In this document: positions 1,155 to 62,830 of the stretch, in pieces
How the letters are laid out: each line of letters begins with the position of its first letter
Numbering within the stretch: position 1 is the first letter of the stretch
DNA from: Hydrolagus affinis
Taxonomy: Eukaryota
Direction: 5' to 3'
Assembly (NCBI GenBank): GCA_012026655.1
Contig: JAAILG010001136.1
Coordinates: 1-64,000, forward strand
Length of the DNA: 64,000 bases
Notes under the pieces: generated by a model
Database searches by the model: none
What the model saw: only the letters and a program-made list of their open reading frames with translations
What the model was told of the DNA's origin: nothing
Made by a program: the position numbers and the translations under genes

Positions 1155-4090
1155 TCGAAGCTTGTGAATGAAAATGAATGGGTTATAATGTCACAGATGA
1201 AGGGTCTCAAAGAATGAATTATTTTCTGTTATTCTCCTAGCGTTCTGAAGCACCTGCCCCACAAGGCTACATGCATTCATATCCTGAGTTTCTGACCTTA
1301 TTATCCTCTCATCTATGCCACACCTACCAAGTTCAACATGCCCGACACGGAACGGTTTTGAAGGTAAAAAATGAACGCAATCTATTTGGATCTGAACCAA
1401 TCATTTTCCTTCCTCCCTCAATCCCTGTTTAGCACCTGTCAAACGAACCATTTCAGGGATACCTCATGTTGGCATGGTCAGAATCTCCTCACCACAATAA
1501 TCGAAACCTGTTCCAGTCGCGTTAGATCATTGTTTGGGAAGCGGACATCTCAGAAAGGGTTGACAGTTTAGATGCGGAAGTAACCATGTCGGGAATCATT
1601 GGAGTGAACCCATGGAACCAGAACAAAATGCATGACTTCAAAAAAATGTAGACAATTAGAATATTGAGGCCAATGGCATCCAATACAAGCAGAAACAATC
1701 AAGCCCAGGCATTAATTCTAGAAGAAGTAATCAACAATGGGACTCAACTGGCAATAGTTGGGAGGGGTGTATGAAACCAGGGCTTATAACTTGATAAGTT
1801 TATATCTTTACTGGTCTTTACTAGCATGACAACAAGGTAGCTTGGTTTATAAGGACATTGAAAGAAAGTCAGGAACAACTTTCATTGTGTGCATGGTTAT
1901 GTCACTGGAATATAGCTAGGCTGCATGAAATAGGTGATCGTATAAATTATGGCGTCATCATAAAGGGCAAAAACATCAGTTAGTAGCTGCAGTGTGCTGA
2001 GAATGTCAGTGCAAAAAGTAATTAAGTCACAAATTAGTCTAAGAGTGCAGACTTCTGTAAGTGCTGCTATTATGATGTCAATATAAATGATAACATTTGA
2101 AGCTCCCAATTAAATTTTTGATGATGAAAATGCTGTTTTCAAAACACAAAGAACTTATCTGATAATATTATTGAGAGACAATATAAGCTCTAAATAGGAA
2201 TGTTAGAAATGTGATTCAATTTCTCAGGTCTGCAAATGAAATGATCATGATATTGGAGCTACAGAGGTCCAACAGAATAACATCAACAACTGCTACACCA
2301 GAGATACAATGAAAAAAAGGTTCCTTATAATTTGATTAAGTGAAAAAAAAGATAAATGTATAACATAGCAGAAATGTTCAAAACACAACTTAGGTAAAAT
2401 TTTAATCAACCTGTAGAATATTAGGCCTATGTAGAGGAAATAAGAAATCAATGTTTGGTGGGTTTGATGTTTACAAAGATCCCCAGAAGATGCAGCAAGC
2501 TTATCAGCTTGACACAGATAGAAAATAATAATTGATACTGTAACCAACGGATGGTGGAAATATAAATGGAGCAGTGAGAATGAAGGAAAATGGCAGTTCT
2601 GCTTTTAGAACATGTTGATGAAAGATGAGCGATAAATTAATCATGGAGGAATAATCCTCGTGGATAATGAGATACTCCCAAAGATTAGATATCAATGATA
2701 GCTATAATTAACCCCATTGATATGAAAATGAAAATTTGGGCACACAGAGAATTAAACATCGATGAAGAAGAAGAACAACAAAATTATGTTTGTATAGCGC
2801 CTTTCATGTCAGGAGAACGTCCCAAGAAGTTCAAAGAGAAAAAACTAAGTGCAATAGTGAGCCATAGAATAACCAAAAGCTGCAAAAGCCTGAGCTATGA
2901 AGAATCAAATGAGAGAAATGCCTTTGGGTATTACAGTATGCAGAAAGGGTGAAAAGCAAATGTAAGATGCTGAGAGCAACAGCATTCGGGAAATTAAATT
3001 AACTTCAGGAGCACTCCATAGCAATGAATTTGAATTCAGAAATGAAACAATGAGATGGAAAGCTGAAGAAGCAATATTGAAACCATATACAGTATCGTAA
3101 AAATATCCGACTTTGACCACAACATCAAAATGACCAAGTAGTATTAAAAGATATGAAAGTAAGAGTGAAGTAGGAAATAATGATATTCAGCAATCTGTGT
3201 TAATATTTTGAATGAGTCCTGAACCACTAGAGAATCTCCTGAACACATAAAGAAATTAGTCATCTAATGAAAGCTTTGAGCACAATCATTTCACATCTTA
3301 CTTTAAGTCAAATGGAAAATACATTTCATTATTATACGGGAACGTGCTTTCAAAAAAGAAAAAAAGGGTTTTTGATTGGTAAGATTTAAACATCAAGGCT
3401 AATGACTGAAAAGTGCAGAACATGTGGAAAATACATCTATCTCTTTATCAATGTCAGATCAATATTTGGCGAAACAGATCAAGATTGAAATGATTATGAT
3501 TTTAAAGAAAACATAGCTACATTTGAGAAAATATCTCAAAAAGTGTCAATGAAGCGTTGGTCCGTGATAATAATAATCCTTGCATTTGTTTTTGGTTCCT
3601 AAGATATTCTTCTCCAGATCTGTTTAGCATCATCATGGAAGCCATTATATCAATAGGAATGATGTCTCCAAGCAATTTAAGATGCATTACTCTCATACAT
3701 ACAACTGCAAAGGAACTGCACATGACTTCAGATGAGATTAATGAACTCAGTTCTAAATTAGGATGACAATCGATATAGAGAAGGCAGGAGTTCAATTCTT
3801 TGGCACTGAATGCATCCGAATTGATCAGAACCCATCTGCAAAAGAAGCCTGAAGCAACTTGGTGAAATGTATCAAACAGAAAACTACCGCAGGGAAAGCT
3901 GGGGATGATGCTAAGATGATCAACTGAGACACCCGCCAATAACTTTAAAATCATCTGAACAACCAGAAAGAAGATGACATTAAAGCCATTTAAACGATGC
4001 CGTGTACAAATTATATAGACAATTAAGTTGTAAGGTAGCCCTCGGATCGACAAGTTCAAAAAAACACCATTAACACAAGCATTTATCATA
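1155..4090 (+). pseudogene. Putative endogenous viral element: decayed C-terminal half of a Bunyavirales-like L (RdRp) gene
   Basis: A-rich, low-stop frames on + strand in an order resembling bunyaviral L: RVSKNELFSV...VSDL (1201, motif D/E-like), EPFQGYLML, GVNPWNQNKMHDFKK, ILRP...LILEEVINNG (frame +2, 1382-1772, 3 internal stops in ~130 codons), VQKVIKSQISL (2003), VRNVIQFLRS (2202), WIMRYSQRLD (2661). Compared from memory only. Confidence 0.6.
2765..2830 (-). mobile_element. L2-type 3' tail inserted inside the putative viral L remnant
   Basis: aacaacaaaattatgtttgtatagcgcctttcatgtcaggagaacgtcccaag is the reverse complement of the L2 tail. Confidence 0.75.
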
Positions 4091-4319
4091 CCAGATTGTA
4101 AATTAATTTCAAACTGGGCTTCTTATCCTTGTGGCTGTTCGCTTCTTTGATTTGGGAGCTTTCGTTTCACTCTGAAAAATTTCCCATTTAGTGTATGACA
4201 TTTGAATGAATTGATACTGTGTGTTCCCCTGCAGAGTCTTTTAGATGAAGATGCTTGATTCTAATTTGAAAATATTGATTGTGTTAGAATGCAGAGTAGC
4301 ACTGAGTTGTTAGTTCATT

Positions 4320-4879: not shown

Positions 4880-5340
4880 CTCAATATTCAAGATGTATGT
4901 AGACTGGAATAAAACATACCCAATGGAAGATTACTAAAGTTATAGACCACACAATTGCAGTTATGTAACTGGGCAGTGATCGATGGTGAAATGTTAGAAG
5001 CAGATAAAGGATTGCCTGTACTGGTACTAAAATAAGGAAGGAGAAGGTTTAACTTTTGGCAGATGGCACCATCGGTCAGACAAGTTTAACACTGTGGATT
5101 CAAGAACGTTGGAATTTATCTTTGTGGTATTACTGAACTTAGATATCAATGTACTCACATTTTCAAATCCAGAGGAAGTGGCACACCATTGATAAACTTC
5201 CCTAAACTCATTTTCAGTGATCCTACAATTTGTGGTCTTCTTGCGAGAAGAGAATAATGCTGCTTGGTAACGCCTGCCTTCCCCTGCATTCATGTAGCCT
5301 ACTGACACGCTTTGTAAGTTTATGCGTGAGTTTAATGAAG
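4880..5340 (+). pseudogene. Coding-like remnant, possibly a more N-terminal L-gene fragment
   Basis: GEGLTFGRWHHRSDKFNTVDSRTLE (frame +3, 5040) and LCGITELRY...PLINFPKLIF (frame +2, 5120) loosely resemble the PA-C-like region of bunyaviral L; a 110-aa antisense ORF overlaps. Confidence 0.3.
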
Positions 5341-5460
5341 CCTTATTGGTTTCTTTCAAGGGGGATGAGAGGAGGGTATTGTATTTAAAGTAAATCTTTT
5401 TACTAAATTGTTTAATTCTATTGGTGGAAATCTTTTTTTAAAAAATCAGCATCCTCTAAA

Positions 5461-6083
5461 TTAGTGGTTAGAGTACTTGCCTCGTAAGCAAGAGGACTTG
5501 GGTTTGATTCCCAGCAGGGTGAAACAATGGGCAAATTTCCTTACTCCACATGCCTTTGTTTACCTAGCAGCAAGTAGGAACCCTGTTTTTAGTCGAATGA
5601 CAGATCACTTTTCCAGTGGTAATAATACCATAAGAAAAAAAATAGAAAATAATTTGGTCACTTAATCCACGACTGTTTGTGGGACACTGCTATGCATAAA
5701 CTGCTATGCAATTTGCCTGCAAAATATAATAATTCTTGCAATTGATATAGCATTTTTCAAAGCGCTTCACAGAATATACTGTAAAGTGAATTGACTGTAT
5801 ATTTGTGGGAGAAACATGGCAGCACAGCAGTATCCCACAAACAGTCGTGGATTGAAATGACCAATTTATTATTGGGTTTTTTGAGGGCTTACTCAGCACA
5901 ATTTGCTTACTCAGCACAAGGCGTGCTGAGTAAGCAAATTTGCCCAAGGTTTCGCATGCAGGGAATTGAACCCAGGTCTCTCGCTATGCAGTAAATTCAC
6001 TTTACAGTATTTTCTGTGAAGCTCTTTGAGACGTCTCTAGGACGTGAAAAACGCTACATCAAATGCAAGGATTATTATTATTA
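5461..6083. mobile_element. Nested SINE cluster: + copy (5461-5720 and tail 5990-6083) interrupted by a - copy (5726-5990)
   Basis: tRNA-like head agtggttagag...ggtttgattccc on +; antisense copy ending gggaattgaacccaggtctctcgct; + tail resumes at attcactttacag. Confidence 0.8.
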
Positions 6084-7208
6084 CAAATAAAGGAAATCTA
6101 GCTCTCCTGTAAATAGAAATGGTTAATGAATCATTGTCTGCCCAGCACACAATCATGTTTAACAGAAAATTGCCCTTCAGGTCCTGGGAGTAACTGAACA
6201 ATGAGGAAAGGTCCGAAATACAAATGAGTTACATTCTGTGTGGGAGCTTTAGAAAGGCTGTCATGATTATGGTTTTGGAAGTTCAGAGAGGAGATTGCTG
6301 AAACCATCCTCACATTTAACAACATGATGTTATGGAACCTGTCAATGGCTTTGACAAGTTTTAATAAAAAATAATCAGTTTGGGCTTCGTAATTGGAAAA
6401 AGGTCAACATTGCAAAGATGGAAGGTCAGAATAATCCTCTTACTAACATAAAGGCAGACTCAGACAACTCAGCAAGTTTAAAGAATGTTGTCTAAGAACG
6501 CATGTGAAAACGCATGTGACGTTAGCATCGTGTCTGATTTCTTAGCTATCGCCAGTCTGCTGCAGCAATGCAGTATGTATCTGTGTGTAATGATTACATA
6601 ATTCAGAAATAACTAGGATTGCCTTCGGTGCTTTCAATCACTGATGTTTTATGAACATCAACTGTTGACCATTTTAATACAAAGAGCAATATCTTCTCAA
6701 TTCTCCAAATGTGTACATTGGGATATGATTTCTGGTGGTAGGAGGGAGCGTAATGTAAGCACTCAGAAGAAAATGGGGACTGACCTGAAAGAAAAAATGT
6801 TTTTTGCCTTGTTTTAACAAAATATCAACATAAATGTTTGATGGGTGTCCAGATTTGCTGTTTTACAGGAATCTTCCTATCATTCTTTGCAGGGAATGTC
6901 ACAGATTAGTTACTACTCTACCTGCACAATAAATCTGAATAATAACAAATAAAACAGCACATTGCATGAACCCCTGCAGACCCCATTTGTACATATGCCA
7001 AACATGAATGAGTGTTGCATACTACAGTTTGACAGAGGGTATATGTAAATTTCTTTGGTGAGTTTTTTTTTATCTGCTTTTCACATGGAGTTTTCAGATC
7101 AATTTAAATAGAATTTGATTGAATTAATCTCTTTCACTGCATTAACAGTTACTCTAACACAGCCAACAAGAAAATGGAAACAGCAAGAGGTTTTGGAGTA
7201 TATTTGGT

Positions 7209-7314
7209 AAAGTACATGAAGTGTGTTGAACAGTATAGTCATCCTGACTATTAACTAACCAAACTCAATGACAGCAATAGCAGACGTGTTTGAGGCCAAT
7301 ACGCTTACGGCAAC
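7209..7314 (+). repeat. Direct repeat copy 1 (~105 bp; partner 7974-8078)
   Basis: aaagtacatg...tcatcctgactattaactaaccaaactcaatgacagcaatagcagacgtgtttgaggccaa aligns by eye to 7974-8078 with scattered mismatches. Confidence 0.85.
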
Positions 7315-7319
7315 CGGGG

Positions 7320-7970
7320 CACATTTAACTCTTTGAAAAAATGTCACACTGTCGTCTAATCCATCTCAGCCCTATCATAATTCACACGTATGTTGCTTGC
7401 ATTCTCTTGTAAAGTAAAACACTGTTGTAATGTGACATGAAGCACATAGCACAGTAATCCTAGAGTTGACTGATTTAATAAAAGCTAGTGCCTTCGTGTG
7501 ATGATATTGTGAAGACCCTTTAGAGCGTTGTTTAGGTTGAGTGTCAACTAATCCAACCTCGACATGTAACCAGCTGTGTCTTGATCCTGACAGGATTGGA
7601 TATTCAAAATTCTACCGATACGCAGAGCTAATCTTAAGAACCTGTATTGTGAAGCATATCAGTGATGCCTGCGGCAAGCTTCAAGGAGCTTCTCAATTAA
7701 ACAGTCAAACGTTACCGCTTTCTTCACGCCTCATAATTCCGCTTCTGATGAAAATCATTGCTAAAGCATCAAACTAGCACACTCCTCCTCTTCACTTTGA
7801 ATAATATTTCGGCATTTAAATGAGTTTACCGGTGAGCATTTTATGGAAATTATAATTATGCTTTTCCATTTTCAACTTAACAGCAGATGTTAGTTCACCC
7901 TGAAACCCATACATCGCACCATCCTCCATTAGCATCCACTCGATGTCAAAGCCACTTGACAACTGACTGA
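7320..7970 (-). pseudogene. Putative decayed phenuivirus-like nucleocapsid (N) gene
   Basis: Minus-strand fragments DIEWMLMEDGAMYGFQGELTSAVKLKMEKH, AVTFDCLI, HHTKALAFIKSVN, HYNSVLLYKRMQ and GLDDS occur in the order of the recalled phlebovirus N motifs (FAYQG, LTLSRV, AHSLYLLQFSRVIN, VNSNF, FGLVD); span ~215 codons. Weak similarity judged by eye. Confidence 0.4.
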
Positions 7971-7973
7971 CGC

Positions 7974-8078
7974 AAAGTACATGCAGAGGCTTGAGCAGTC
8001 TTCATCCTGATTATTAAATAACCAAACTCAATCACAGCAACCGCAGACGTGTTTGAGGCCAACACTCCTACAGCTAAC
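7974..8078 (+). repeat. Direct repeat copy 2 (~105 bp; partner 7209-7314)
   Basis: aaagtacatg...tcatcctgattattaaataaccaaactcaatcacagcaaccgcagacgtgtttgaggccaa. Confidence 0.85.
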
Positions 8079-8271
8079 TGATTGGCAGGAAAGATTTCTA
8101 CTACTTGAACTGCTTGCTGTCTGATCTCTGCTCATTCTAATTAAAACTAATCTATTGCTCTAGGTGGTCAATGATTTGCAATATGTGAATACCCTGAACA
8201 GCAATAATGAAGCAATGATGGCGATTCACAAAAATTAGAAGGAATGCTGGACAAAGGCACATTACCTGTAC

Positions 8272-8337
8272 CTGAGGTGGGTGATTTGCAGCGTTCGAGC
8301 TCCAGTGATACAGGACTGTCCGAAAGTTCATTCAAGC
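8272..8337 (-). CDS. STXBP5L: Tomosyn-2 hypervariable-region exon, 66 nt, symmetric phase 1 (LNELSDSPVSLELERCKSPTS)
   Basis: Acceptor tttccag, donor GTACAG (second donor GTAATG 6 nt further); matches the recalled LTELNDSPVPLELERCKSPTS. Confidence 0.9.
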
Positions 8338-8635
8338 CTGGAAACATTAAAAACACACTAGATTACCAAGCTACTGTATATCAATAAAGAAACCTATTTT
8401 GAACACTCATAGGATATCCAAATATGTTTGTTATAGGATTCTAGAATAATCCCTACAGGAATTGTCATGCTATAAATCCATATTTAAGCCAATATACAAG
8501 GATCTGAAACCTAACCTTTACTTATGTTGTCTCTTCACTAACTCAAGACACCAAACAGTGATTTATACCTCAACCAAGTTGCTGAGTCCAGAGTTGTTCA
8601 GGCAAGTTGAAGTACTGTATGGTGGAATTGTATTT

Positions 8636-10679: not shown

Positions 10680-10729
10680 CACAGGCAACACCCCTGTGCT
10701 GCCTGTGCAGCACAGGGGTGTTGCCTGTG
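10680..10729. repeat. Perfect 23-bp inverted repeat with 4-nt loop
   Basis: cacaggcaacacccctgtgctgc-ctgt-gcagcacaggggtgttgcctgtg; the arms are exact reverse complements. Confidence 0.95.
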
Positions 10730-22153: not shown

Positions 22154-23046
22154 CTCTAGTTTCCTCCTTTCTACAGTCAATGTATACGAACCTTGATTTT
22201 ACAATAAAAACTGTCTTATCGAAATAAATTGTCTTATCAAGTACAATTAATCAATGTCGAATTATAAGTCAGGGGAGTTTCACATTGTAATAGATCCCAA
22301 ATCAATTTTATTTCGAATCAGTTGGCATTGTTCCTTTTTCAATGAATGGAGGCAGGAAACTTTCTACACAATGTAAAATTTGTAACCTCTGCTTAAAACT
22401 ATTTTTGGTGACGTTTGTGATTGGAGTGAAGTTTTTAGAAATGATGGTCTTCTCTCAATTCCCCAGCTTTGATCACGGCTGATATTTGACTCTACCCAGA
22501 AAGCAAAATGCCCTTCGCTTGCCTTCTGGAATTGCAATTGTTAAAAAATAAAATGCTAAGTTGGGAGTCCAATTTTTATTAAACAAAATCTAACCTTTAA
22601 TTCACACTGGTTTGCAAAGGTTACAATTTCAACCTCACCATGACTGCCATAGAGGCAAACATGCATCACTTCTTACTCTCTCCCTTTCCTCCTTCAAAGC
22701 AAATCTCAAGACCCTACTCTTTGATTGGGCATTTGGTTTCCACCCTCCTACCCCTAACCTTCCTGCCCTCCACCCCTCCTGATCCCAATCTCCTGCTTGT
22801 GTCCAAATCCCTGACAGTCCAGTGCCTTGGATGTCCCCCTGACATAAAAGGCACTATACAAATGCAATTTGTTGTTGTTGTTGTTCCATATCAATTATAA
22901 TATAAGTCCCAACTTTTATAACAATTATAATATAGTATAACTATAACAATTATAGTATAGTACTATACTATATAGTAGTATATAGTACTATATACTACCA
23001 GTATAGTAGTTGTTTGGAACAAGAAAATGCCTTTCAACAGCTTAAT

Positions 23047-23651
23047 TAAACAGCTTGACTATGGGAACTCTCTCCTTGTTGGCCTCCCCAGCTCCTCTCT
23101 TCACAGACTGCAGATCATTCAGAATTCTGCAGCTCGTGTACTCTCCCGCACCAGGCTTCGCGACCACATCACTCCCACCCTCGCCCGTCTCCACTGGCTC
23201 TCCGTCCTTCAGAGGATCGAATTCAAGATCCTTGTTCTCACTTTCAAGGCCATTCATGGCCTTTCCCCCACCTATCTCTCCGACCTACTGTCTCCCTATC
23301 TGCCTGCCCGTCCCCTCCGTTCAGGCCTGGTCCGCGTCCACCTCCCCAACCACCCAACCATTGGCAGCCAGGCTTTCTGCCTCTCTACTCCCACACTGTG
23401 GAACTCCATCTCGCAGCCCCTCTGCCTCGCTTCCTCCCTTTCCTCCTTCAAGGCCGGTCTCAAGACTTTCCTTTTCGACCGCGCCTTTGGTTGCCCAACT
23501 AACTCTTCCCCCTCTCCCACTCTCCTTCCCCTTCCCCCCTACCCCGACCCTCCCCCCGCCCCCCACTCGGGTCCCAACCTGACTGATCAGCGCTTTGGGA
23601 CGTCCTCCCAACGTGAAAGGTGCTGTATAAGTGCAATTTTGTTGTTGTTGT
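23047..23651 (+). mobile_element. L2 LINE 3' end (ORF2 C-terminus, 3' UTR, (TTG)n tail)
   Basis: ORF 23027-23683 contains LDYGNSLLVGLP...[12 protein letters not shown]...HITPTLARLHWL...EFKILVLTFKAIHGLSPTYLSDLL, typical of L2 ORF2. Confidence 0.92.
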
Positions 23652-25046
23652 TAGTATCAACCGTTACCTACAATGGCAATTGACCAGTTATCCGTATCTA
23701 AATATTTGTCTTGAGGCACATTGGCACCACATGTCCTCTTTGAGTTGACGGAGCACAGATATAGGATGAAAGTTTTTTTGATATCTAAATGTAAGATTTA
23801 TTTTATTGTAAAGAAATCTAAACTGGCAGAGAAGCCGTGAAACTCAAACAGGAACACGACTGGTGGAACTGAGAACTAAAATGTGGCGTTAAAATGCAAT
23901 TTCTAAACCATTTTATAGTTACAAAGTTAAGAAAATATAAATTGGTCATTTGTCATGTGTTTTCTTTCACCTGGTCAGTTCTGAAAACAATTATGATTGC
24001 GCATTCACAACTCAGCCTATCTTTCTGCTGTGAGGGTCAGATTCAGTGATGGATACCATGATGTGTTTATTTCTTTGTTTACTTCTTTTCCCATCACTGC
24101 CTTAGATGAGATCAACCTTGCAAGTGTGCGACCATCTAAATCCTTATTCATACTGAATGTAGCAGCTTTGGTGAAGTGACACGATTGAGATTTCAAGTTA
24201 ATTCAAAGCAAATCTCTTGCTTTAGAGCAAAATAGCATCAGAATTTTTCACTGACTTTTTTAAACAAAATGTTTACTTGTATAAAGATTCTGGTGCTCAG
24301 TGCTTCCTGCTAAGCCAGTCCATTAAAAGCAGATTAGTTTGACTTTAGCTGGCTATATTTTATCCATCGAGCTTATCTAAAAATGGTTTGGGCTTTTAGC
24401 AAAGTATTAAATAACTGAATTTATGCAACCACACGATTTTCACTGCCAGCCTATCATCACAGAATTAGCTATGCATATTAATGAATCATCAATGTACAAT
24501 CATAATGATGCAATGACTGGATAATATGTAAATACATGAACATTGTTAAATGCTGCAGTATAGTTTGACAGTGTAATTATTCAGTTCTGCTGCTGAATCC
24601 CTGCACAACGCTTTCTCAATCAGGCTGACATAATGCTTTCTCAATCAGGTTGACTGAATCCTTTTCTAGACGGGCAACTCAGACACACGTGAATTACTTA
24701 CACAGCAGGCTAACTAAAGGAATTTTCCATCTTCACATTTCCACGTTTTAAATTGACTGGAATTCGAATCACCTCCGCACCTGAAGTAGCAAATCTTCCT
24801 AATACTCCCCTCCCCTCCCACCCCCAATCCCTCATCAGTAAATCCAACCTCAGTGCTGATTGGGTAATTGAATGTAAATGTACAAATGACACTAAAATGA
24901 CAAGCTTACAACTGTAACCATTCTACAACATTACTTACATTATGATTTTAACTGCGAGCATCATAAAAGTTAGATGTTAACACGGAAATAACTTGGTTGT
25001 TCGGAGCAGGATAAGGGGAAGGAAATACATCTGTTTAGAGACTCAC

Positions 25047-36805: not shown

Positions 36806-37106
36806 CTAGTGATCAAAAGACAAAAAACACAATGTAATCACTTCAGAATTTTTCTTAATTAGAATGAACATTGGATTCGCTCAACATTAAAGTTACAGGA
36901 CTGTCAATTCAATTCAACTCTCAATTCTATTATCCTCTTCTGTTTTCTGGAGAGTCCCTCCATTGGTTTCCCCGCCATCACCTTTTTAATGACATACAAT
37001 GACTGTGCTATGCAATACTTTAGGTGATAAAACGATCACATTACTTCCTCGTATTATACCAGCATATTTCAATATTTCATATTTTATATATACCAGCATA
37101 TTTCAA

Positions 37107-37610
37107 CAGGCGGGCGGGTAACTAGACATGAGGTGTAGGGGGTGAGGAGGAGGCATGGTTGGGATGAGGGAGGGAAGAGAGGGCGACTGAAGGCACGGTC
37201 GAAGAGGAGGGTCTTGAGACTGGCCTTGAAGAAGGTAAGGGAGGGAACAAGGCGAAGGGATTGTGGGATGGAGTTCCAAAGTGTGGGGCAGAGAGGCTGA
37301 AAGCCCGGCCGTCAATGGCAGGCTGGGCTGGTCTGGCGGGAGACATGGAGCACGTCGGAGCCTGCTGAATGGAGGGAGCAGAAGGTTGAGAGTCAGCAGG
37401 TCACAGAGACAGCAGGAGGCAAGGCTATGGCGAGCCTTGAAAATGAGGACAAGGATCTTGAATTCAATCCTCAGAGGAATGGGGAGCCAGTGGAGTCGGG
37501 TGAGGGGAGGTGGTGGAGGTGATGAGATAGTGGGGCCTAGTTCAGGAGAGGACACGAGCTGCGGAGTTTGGGATGATCTGCAGCTTGTGGAGGGAAGAGT
37601 TGGGGAGGCC
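37107..37610 (-). mobile_element. L2 LINE 3' ORF2 fragment
   Basis: ORF 37103-37612 contains LTRLHWLPIPLRIEFKILVLIFKA. Confidence 0.88.
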
Positions 37611-37716
37611 AATTTTGGATGAAAGATAATCTGAATTATATTAATATTAAAAGGGAATTCTGGACATTAAGATAATGCATGTGTAGTTTTTTTTTTAGCT
37701 TTTCAGAATTACTTAC

Positions 37717-48225: not shown

Positions 48226-50352
48226 AAAAATGTAAACAGAAATAGAAACATTGTAATGACAATAAATTGGATCCGAGTGGTTTTTGCTCTTGTATTGTTT
48301 TAAGTACAGTTCGTGGCAAATGCATTCTGTTTCATTCTGGTAACTAATGAATACCCTTATCTAAGACAACCACACACACAGCTTTCCAGCCTCGATCGGA
48401 GCCTTGCTCTGAGCTTGGAGTGCTATCTTGGACAGCAGCATAATCTTAAATCTACAATGGAAATGTTCACATTACCTGAACATGTGTCAGTAAATTTAGT
48501 AACACAAAACAAAGAAATAAATCCTGTTTTTAACCATACAACAATTTGTATGCATAGAATGCATTACAGAGACAAAATACTTGCACGGATTACAAATAAC
48601 ACACCAGGAACTGGCCTGAAATATTTGAATTTAAATTCAAACCCTATTTTTTTTGTAATGCACGGTAAAGAGCACAGTTAATGTGTTTTGGTGTGAGATT
48701 GCATTATTGGAACTCTTTTAATACCATCAGGAATTCGGAACCCCCCCCAAATTCTAACACATAACCAGAGCCAAATGGAAGATTCATTCTGTTCCCAATT
48801 ATAATTTTAAAATCATTTTTTCTTCAGGGATTATTATCAGGCATGTGGGGTAAGGAACCTTGCCTAAGGTTTCACTCATTGTATATGCTCATGCATTCCC
48901 AAACTGTTTAAAATCGTTGTCAAAATTATCAAAATCCAAAGAACTTTTTTGGTATCCACGGAATCCGAAAATGTTTCTCATTCTACAACTCAAACAGTCA
49001 CCAGAGATTAACCGGTCATTCGTTGGGTAACCTCAAGAAATCTTAAAATGCTTTGTTGCTTCTTTTAAAAGGAACTCAACAATTTTCTAAAGGTTATTTT
49101 CAGCTCTTGCACACACAGTGCATTGAGGTACTGACTGGGAACATTTCAGGTTCAATCTCTGGTTGTTGTAATCTCCGGTTGTGCTTAGTTTTCCATGCGA
49201 CTCTGGGATACCGCAGGGCAGCAGAAAAACTGCACTAACATAGGCCGCTGACTCTTGGAGGAGAGGTAACCGGGGAGGAAAATATTTATCAATAAGGTTA
49301 AATTTGAAGACAACAAGTTAAGGGAGAGATTTGCATAAATCCATAATTGCCTAAGACGTAAATTCACCCGAGTCCCTCCCATTCAATTTACTATCAAAAC
49401 CACTCAGAATTCTTTGCACTACTCCTAACTCATAACGTTGTTTCCATCTCCTCCATTACTCCCGCACTTACTGACTGCGTTGAAGTATGGGAAACATGAT
49501 CCGTTTGCACGCGCAGACGAACTTCATTCCCCCGTCATTCAATGTGATTCCAACGATTGCCAGAAAGTGGCAACGAATCAAGATGCACCAGCATCACGGG
49601 AAATATAGTTTTGGGTCTGTTACCACGTGTGCACTTACTGACCGCTGTGAATTATGTACGTGCGGTGTCGTTTGCCTACAACTTGGACTCCCCCCCACAC
49701 CCTCCCACCTGGGTCGGAGACAGGCCTCCACCACTGTTAAGCACTCTGAGACGCTACCCGGTGTGGAGGGGTGCTATATTATAATAATCCTTGCATTTGA
49801 TCTTAGTGCAAGTTGTGGCTGTATCTAATGAAGGTCGGTTCCTGAGCAATAAGGTATGGAGCATCTTGTGTCAGGTGCATTTTATTTTCCAATTTGTAAA
49901 CGACAGTACCCTGCCAAGCAAGTGTTGCACAACTTTTCCAAATGTAATCTAAACACAGTTAATGAGCACTCTTGCTAATCAGTAGCTTTTTGCTTCAGGC
50001 TGAAAGCCTTACAATGTGCCTCGGGACATCTTCCTGACATAAAAGGCCCTATACAAATGCAATTTATAATTTATTGTGAAATAAACCACCTTGTTTTTTC
50101 ACATGACTTGTGACACAATACTAATTAAAGGCCTCTATATTTACCTTGCTTGATTTCTGAAATAGAAATAAATTAGCTGAAACTAATTTGTAGGAATAGA
50201 GAAGCATAGAGCAAAGCATCAGAAATATTGCTGTAACTACAAGTTGTACATGTCAAAAAACATCTGTGTTTCATTTTGAAAGCCCAAATATTAAGTACCT
50301 GCAGGATAAAGATTAAAAGAAAGAAACATTCTACATTATTTTTCTTACTTAC

Positions 50353-62183: not shown

Positions 62184-62830
62184 CAACAACAACAACAACA
62201 AAATTACACTTGTATAGCGCCTTTCACATCAGGAGGACCACCTAAGACGCTGGACAGTCACTGGTGACGGAATGGGGGAGGGAAGGGGGGGAGTTGCCAA
62301 TGGGTCAATTGAAGAGGAGAATCTTGAGGTGAGACTTGAAGGAGGCCAGGGAGTGGGGCGAGGTGGAGGGACTGAGGTATGGAGTTCCAGAGGTTGGTGG
62401 CAGAGTGACTGAAGGCTCGCCCGCCAATGGTGGCATGGGTGAGTCGGGGAATGTGGAGCAAGCCAGAGCCTGGTGAGCAGAGGGAGCAGGCAGATTGGTA
62501 AGGGGTTAGGAGGTCACAGATGTAGGGTGGGCGAGGTTGTGGAGGGCTTTAAATGTGAGGACCAGGATCTTGAATTGGATTCTTTGATTGATGGGGAGCC
62601 AATGGAGTCGGGCGAGGATGGGGGAGGTGAGGTCATAGAGTTTGGAACGGTAGAGGACACGGGCTGCAGAGTTCTGGATTATCTGCAGCCTGTGGAGGGA
62701 GGAATTAGGAAGGCCGACAAGCAGGGCATTTGCATAGTCGAGCTGGGATGTATTGAAAGCGTGAGTGAGGGTTTCAGTGGCTATGGGGGGTGAGGTAGTG
62801 GCGAGTCGGGCAATGTTGCAGAGATGGGGA
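62184..62830 (-). mobile_element. L2 LINE 3' end with (TTG)n tail
   Basis: (aac)n tail, ORF 62258-62461 LHIPRLTHATIGGRAFSHSATNLWNSIP, and upstream L2 ORF2 C-terminal sequence. Confidence 0.9.

Follow-up and report, generated by a model that had tools for sequence, protein, structure and literature searches.

Phenui-like non-retroviral integrated sequences occur in ticks and other arthropods, where they were found by tBLASTn at E ≤ 1e-3 combined with a reciprocal search (PMC6580184). In vertebrates, the nucleoprotein EVEs described in PMC3205384 and PMC11521997 include those of bornaviruses (EBLN), filoviruses (NP), chuviruses and paramyxoviruses and that of a shrew nairovirus, and LINE-1 hallmarks were reported for the bornavirus and filovirus EVEs (PMC3205384). 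A screen of 295 vertebrate assemblies added chuvirus, paramyxovirus, benyvirus, nairovirus and hepacivirus EVEs; in its main text, neither "phenui" nor "phlebo" occurs (PMC11521997). Among the matches listed in our literature search, which lay mostly outside subscription papers, no title or abstract described a phenuiviral nucleocapsid (N) EVE in a vertebrate.

Three further kinds of system bear on the anatomy described below. Host reverse transcriptases copy circular templates, as reported for circRNA-derived pseudogenes (PMC4897178) and for circular viral DNA in insects (PMC5857290). Zeta virus-like circular RNAs, as described in the preprint, are 324-789 nt long, are mostly multiples of three and have reading frames that run around the circle (bioRxiv 10.1101/2020.08.07.241729). 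In the case of ZfL2-2, 1 of 25 insertions in wild-type cells was reported with a long target duplication, of 1228 bp (PMC2666801).

The locus analyzed here lies in a 64-kb window, that is, the whole stretch of DNA that was analyzed. If it were derived from a phenuivirid N gene, it would be a fossil of the same kind as the arthropod integrations; in contrast to these, it gave no significant match and belongs to a vertebrate. The vertebrate nucleoprotein EVEs are likewise gene-sized, decayed, single-locus insertions, from negative-strand viruses. The circular-template retrocopies provide a precedent for the route, whereas for the present segment the searches yielded neither a parent gene nor a virus.

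The segment measures roughly 870 bases in total (7209-8078) and carries the same 105 bases at both ends. The two copies of this direct repeat (7209-7311/7314 and 7974-8074/8078) are 83.5% identical over 103 columns (blastn E 2e-26) and are spaced by 763-765 nt. The first-pass annotation had described diverged direct repeats bounding an insert of ~660 bp, and its coordinates were borne out. Copy A (7974-8078, minus strand) is upstream in the host sense and contains the single 2-nt gap of the alignment, near 8002; copy B (7209-7314, minus strand) is downstream. Between them lies an interior of 659 nt (7315-7973, minus strand) that is single-copy, CpG-rich and decayed, with many stops and probable frame breaks. 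The similarity between the copies ends sharply on both sides, and the DNA outside the repeats is not homologous (six DNA and four translated flank comparisons, p 0.07-0.57), by which a longer tandem duplication was rejected. Neither a third copy of the repeat nor a second copy of the interior was found in the 64-kb window.

The composition of the segment was compared with that of its surroundings. The observed/expected ratio of CpG is 0.66 (23 CpGs) in 7209-8078, against 0.25 in 6100-7208, 0.20 in 8079-8630 and a median of 0.39 in the window; a ratio of 0.66 is reached by 0.9% of the other sliding windows. Since all CpGs within 6750-8221 are confined to 7285-8048, with five of the segment's CpGs inside the repeats, the edges of the CpG-rich zone match the outer edges of the repeats. 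The segment thus looks foreign to the surrounding intron. A further segment that is CpG-rich (o/e about 0.7) and for the most part single-copy is present at 48800-49700; its six frames gave no Pfam match, and it appears to be a second orphan insert.

The rest of the window is rich in repeats, with 50 repeat intervals in a self-comparison, many of them derived from an abundant tRNA-headed SINE. This SINE family occurs at 5450-6086 and at about 20 other sites, with heads that score as tRNA (3 by ARAGORN, 8 by Rfam); we take its tail to resemble those of cartilaginous fishes. By eye, an A-rich region at about 2000-4120 on the plus strand, antisense to the host gene, looks like a decayed LINE reverse-transcriptase region, of which 3517-4123 gave no Pfam match. 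L2-like 3' fragments were likewise seen by eye at 22979-23683, 37103-37666 and 62269-62793, the first without a Pfam match. A perfect 23-bp inverted repeat with a 4-nt loop is located at 10680-10729.

A scan for splice sites and open frames revealed short exons on the minus strand from about 46200 down to 8266. One of them matches Pfam LLGL (E 1.8e-13) and another, weakly, WD40; we take the exon peptides to be those of tomosyn-2 (STXBP5L). The exon directly upstream of the segment (8266-8337, minus strand) in this tomosyn-family (STXBP5/STXBP5L-like) gene ends at 8266. The intron that holds the segment begins with the GT donor at 8265, on the same strand and at a distance of 187 nt from the repeat, in agreement with the earlier statement that the segment lies in the host sense direction about 200 bp downstream of an exon donor. 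A second GT donor is present at 8271, 6 nt from 8265 and in the same phase, so that the two are possible alternative 5' splice sites. A 136-codon open frame in the host sense (5027-5437, minus strand), without a Pfam match, lies between two SINEs and may be an alternative exon or due to chance.

The first-pass annotation had also proposed that the segment could be spliced into host transcripts. Candidate acceptors do exist at 8077 and 8073, and the only internal donor-like site, at 7259, is weak. By frame arithmetic, the reading from the acceptor at 8077 would meet a stop after about 16 codons and that from 8073 after about 42. Inclusion of the segment would truncate the host protein, and a functional fusion of the two seems therefore to be unlikely on the basis of the sequence.

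We then consider whether the segment once encoded a protein. A frameshift-tolerant codon model gave -3.0 on the minus strand, a score reached by 3.7% of 408 other windows, and -26.0 on the plus strand. In its calibration, simulated decayed ORFs had medians of +4.9 (d 0.087) and -0.9 (d 0.17), and the null median was -14.2. The interior alone scored more weakly (top 9% of 412 windows). In 40-codon windows, 8100-7981 in the P0003 frame exceeded the 99th percentile, 7980-7861 in the P0001 frame was at the 99th, and 7920-7801 and 7560-7441 were at the 94th; six host exons, as controls, scored 1.6-5.1. The signal is highest in copy A and the next 120 nt, and copy A itself has the top 40-codon score of the region, above 99% of the null windows. 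In the interior, it is the P0001 frame that carries the signal, first in 7980-7801 and again in 7560-7441; between these the signal is ambiguous.

Copy A is open in the P0003 frame, and copy B follows on from the end of the interior in the P0001 frame and has one stop, at 7257. In the frame of copy B, the repeat passes both repeat/interior junctions without a stop. The P0001 frame contains 11 stops in 7209-7973, a number that is equalled or undercut by some frame in 81% of the other windows, so that no depletion of stops relative to other windows was observed in the segment. The 16 differences between the copies are distributed 10:5:1 by codon position (chi-square p 0.022; permutation P 0.010). 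The pN/pS of the pair, 0.45, is not significant (best-of-six-frames permutation P 0.30), nor is a BLOSUM test on the repeat differences (P 0.29). These modest pieces of evidence suggest that the segment was probably once protein-coding on the minus strand. Together with the CpG excess, the coding score supports the earlier view that a foreign-looking segment, probably coding in the past, was inserted in the sense direction of the host.

It is worth noting that a three-base periodicity does not stop at copy A: in 150-nt windows (chi-square 13-22) it can be followed ~180 nt further upstream, where the DNA is CpG-poor. On the minus strand of this CpG-poor stretch (8079-8260), the periodicity is accompanied by G-first codons in the frame of the host exon, and the reading is open from 8131. 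A clean boundary of the insert at 8078 does not account for this periodicity; either the insert extends past the repeat, or the periodicity is due to chance.

No homologue of the segment was found. In Pfam, which includes a model of the tenuivirus/phlebovirus N protein, six frames and 32 slices matched no viral family and gave five weak unrelated matches (E 0.03-4.4). Seven NCBIfam queries gave one chance match to a small membrane protein, twice, and PHROGs gave none. Among PDB sequences at E ≤ 10 there was no N, the only matches being at E ≥ 0.2 (BUBR1, IMP dehydrogenase, nitrite reductase and ChlI); a BUB1-family retrocopy was rejected, its E values being only 0.2-0.45 with no Pfam domain. 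A word-seeded search of 5.8 billion proteins yielded 0 of 264, 0 of 3 and 0 of 279 candidates, and phmmer, with the P0001 frame alone, against 1.84 billion representatives found no viral protein; its sole match (E 5e-4), a tandem-repeat protein of 2359 aa, was rejected as chance (pairwise E 0.04). Two stop-free frames of 78 aa had no usable match in the ESM Atlas, with recognition values of 1223 and 1299, the same as for shuffled sequence. Further, blastn against phages and plasmids gave one 23-nt chance match in two records and otherwise none, tblastn against phages gave none, and a GTDB scan with one frame confirmed 0 of 197 stretches. Three Rfam matches were all judged to be chance, by which a structured RNA was rejected, and a scan for bacterial promoters and terminators, irrelevant here, stayed at chance level.

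The fold check proposed earlier was performed on predicted models. The single-sequence, single-frame models had low confidence (pLDDT 36.7 and 40.9). With these, Foldseek against BFVD and PDB gave nothing at E ≤ 0.001, and VIA-align returned generic helical bundles (best Z 8.1, rmsd 2.5, 73 aligned). No viral protein emerged from these comparisons; since the pLDDT values are too low to judge whether the models have the all-helical, two-lobed architecture of N with its N-terminal arm, they count neither for nor against N. The negative results of the searches are also weak evidence, because each search used one frame and was blind to frameshifts, because the deepest one covered P0001 alone, and because 11 control frames from other decayed, CpG-rich or LINE-like segments in the window also failed to match any Pfam family (0 of 11). 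Orphan decayed inserts are therefore ordinary in this window.

The analysis favours the view that the repeats are part of the insert rather than a duplicated host target, that is, that the segment represents about 1.14 head-to-tail copies of a 765-nt (255-codon) unit. The repeats are read in this way because they are the most coding-like part of the segment, bear CpGs, and have a frame that crosses both junctions, and because the period is 255 codons. Of the two insertion routes offered in the first-pass annotation, a concatemeric or circular template thus seems to fit better, and a long target duplication less well. Foreign, once-coding DNA would have entered the germ line in an intron of the tomosyn-family gene. 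Its template would have been head-to-tail or circular, with the 765-nt unit, and copying or cutting ~105 nt beyond one full turn would have left ends that repeat each other. Insertion was probably the work of a LINE reverse transcriptase resident in the genome, or else of the repair of a double-strand break, although no hallmark of the event survives. The source may have been a virus or a mobile element that is not recognised, rather than the N gene of a phenuivirid, and the insert would since have decayed neutrally, by up to about 9% per copy, most likely with no function. What is observed in this account are the repeats, their sharp ends, the CpG excess, the weak coding signal on the sense strand and the failure to find a homologue. 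As a whole, a dead insert of foreign, once-coding DNA from a circular or tandem template and a non-phenuivirid source, decaying neutrally, has in our judgment a probability slightly short of even. Overall, we regard the region 7209-8078 as genuine but most probably unremarkable, an orphan insertion that is now dead and whose ends are redundant.

The 765-nt unit falls within the size range of the zeta-like RNAs and is a multiple of three. Zeta-like RNAs, however, are marked by a rod-like fold and by hammerhead ribozymes in both polarities. The unit is not zeta-like despite its size, because it has no rod-like fold (circular folding z +1.0 and +1.8, 25 shuffles each) and Rfam found no hammerhead ribozyme; its coding signal, moreover, is on one strand only. 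A zeta-like or ribozyme-bearing circle was rejected on these grounds.

The divergence of the repeats had been proposed as a means of dating the event. It is measurable (K2P distance 0.174, which corresponds to at most about 9% per copy), but the age is uncertain in view of its pattern. The differences are rich in transversions: 10 were counted alongside 6 transitions, whereas the local transition/transversion ratio is 1.74 (P 0.03). Because of this excess and of the uneven codon positions, part of the divergence may predate the insertion, and any divergence already present in the source would cause the repeat pair to overestimate the age of the insertion.

An alternative, which we consider unlikely, is that the 105-mer is host intron DNA doubled around a foreign piece of 659 nt, as could happen if an L2/CR1 enzyme placed its second nick far from the first. 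Such an event would explain the sharp ends and the presence of just two copies in the window, and the periodicity that passes from the upstream DNA into copy A is consistent with it. L2 integration sometimes gives long duplications (PMC2666801), and the segment shares with those ZfL2-2 insertions the long direct repeats around an insert, in a window that holds L2-like remnants. The SINE and LINE copy pairs in the window have a median identity of 78.9%, which is comparable to the 83.5% of the repeat pair, so that neutral decay from identical copies is plausible. The excess of transversions, however, counts against this alternative. Furthermore, the doubled DNA would have to be the most coding-like part of the segment, with CpGs as in the interior. 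In contrast to ZfL2-2, the interior lacks a tail and cannot be recognised as LINE sequence. No poly(A) separates interior and repeat. A LINE-mediated retrocopy would carry its 3' poly(A) beside the downstream target duplication, but the minus strand shows no run of A at 7315-7330, and one has to pass copy B to reach the nearest A10, at about 7063-7072.

It is somewhat more doubtful that the segment is an N gene of a distant phenuivirid, fossilised in the germ line of a vertebrate (resembling a cartilaginous fish, to judge by the SINE) and broken by several frameshifts and stops. Under this interpretation the repeat would stem from a target duplication or from a circular or concatemeric cDNA, the latter giving the 1.14 units. 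The unit of 255 codons is close to the length of N (RVFV N extends to residue 245 in PMC5764413). The best single argument for an N-like origin is an F-x-K-x-V-N block on the minus strand (7467-7482), in which F, K, V and N at 7482, 7476, 7470 and 7467 have exactly the spacing of F176, R178, I180 and N181 of RVFV N as given in PMC5764413, two being identical and two conservative by eye. The background rate for a block of this type is about 0.02 in 870 nt of one strand, and the whole window contains two, both strands included. An A-A and a D-x-L in the P0003 frame (7625-7675, minus strand) lie 64 and about 49 codons upstream of the F176 block, where 67 and 50 would be expected for A109/A110 and E124/L126; this was a post hoc choice. 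The F176 block and the two smaller blocks occurred jointly once in 8 Mb of simulated sequence, having been picked post hoc from seven blocks. In the 120-131 block of N, which the A-A precedes, two of seven positions match and five fail, with a change of frame needed and again chosen post hoc.

The two main motifs of the first-pass annotation sit where their frame scores at the 94th-99th percentile, the local indel rate of 0.124 per substitution would permit four to five frameshifts, and other decayed elements in the window likewise escape the searches. Against these points, only about 10 of the 27 published RVFV N positions (PMC5764413, PMC3093367) match by eye, the misfits including Y30, D34, W24, F28, K67, K74, P127, P147, F149, P199 and A202. 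Of the arm and hinge residues W24, V25, F28, Y30, F33 and D34 (PMC5764413), one of six is identical in the motif of the first-pass annotation, no matter whether W, Y or F serves as the anchor. The basic RNA-binding cleft (R64, G65, K67 and K74 in PMC3093367 and PMC5764413) is represented by at most two of four residues, displaced by ~9 codons, and P147/F149 and P199/A202 have no counterpart (0 of 4) at the distance expected from F176. The frame model takes a third frame over 7821-7358, which drops both C-terminal motifs. In addition, a V-x-x-F-x-Y in the repeat itself fits V25/F28/Y30 better than the motif originally chosen, which indicates that such matches arise easily. The lack of a viral match in any search and the absence of phenuiviruses from the main text of the 295-genome screen (PMC11521997) also argue against an N gene.

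The peptides quoted in the first-pass annotation are present on the minus strand, but not in a single frame: DIEWML..., HHTKALAF... and GLDDS are in P0001 and HYNSVLL is in P0003. A single N-like frame of ~215 codons was not confirmed. No profile, sequence or fold search supports the phlebovirus-type N identity that had been assigned; as the searches are blind to frameshifts, the fold models had low confidence and one residue block fits, the identity is not refuted, but we do not assign the segment to phenuivirid N.

There is a small chance that the segment is a non-autonomous retroelement with the repeats as its termini, such as a TRIM-like LTR pair, a DIRS/Ngaro split repeat or a Penelope-type partial tandem. 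The direct-repeat anatomy agrees with this, and the CpG excess resembles that of the window's other mobile DNA. LTR elements and TRIMs are characterised by TG...CA termini, a flanking duplication of 4-6 bp, a primer-binding site and a polypurine tract. Here, TG...CA ends, a short flanking duplication, a primer-binding site and a purine tract are all absent by eye on both strands. There is also no further copy in the 64 kb, no reverse transcriptase, integrase or recombinase domain in Pfam, and no ribozyme.

We regard as very improbable a purely local, non-coding rearrangement, in which break repair placed a copy of a short piece of host DNA at a distance of 765 nt and both the CpG excess and the coding signal arose by chance: every coding test is borderline taken singly and there is no homologue of any kind, but the CpG excess is restricted to the bracketed segment and the strand asymmetry of the coding score is strong (-3 versus -26).

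At present, the segment adds one decayed insertion to an intron already rich in repeats and is of little importance. If the derivation from an N gene were true, it would be the first vertebrate fossil of a phenuivirid and notable for paleovirologists. It would then record an unsampled phenuivirid-like lineage that infected vertebrates together with a circular-template route to endogenisation, and the redundancy of its ends would likewise be an uncommon genomic record of such a template.
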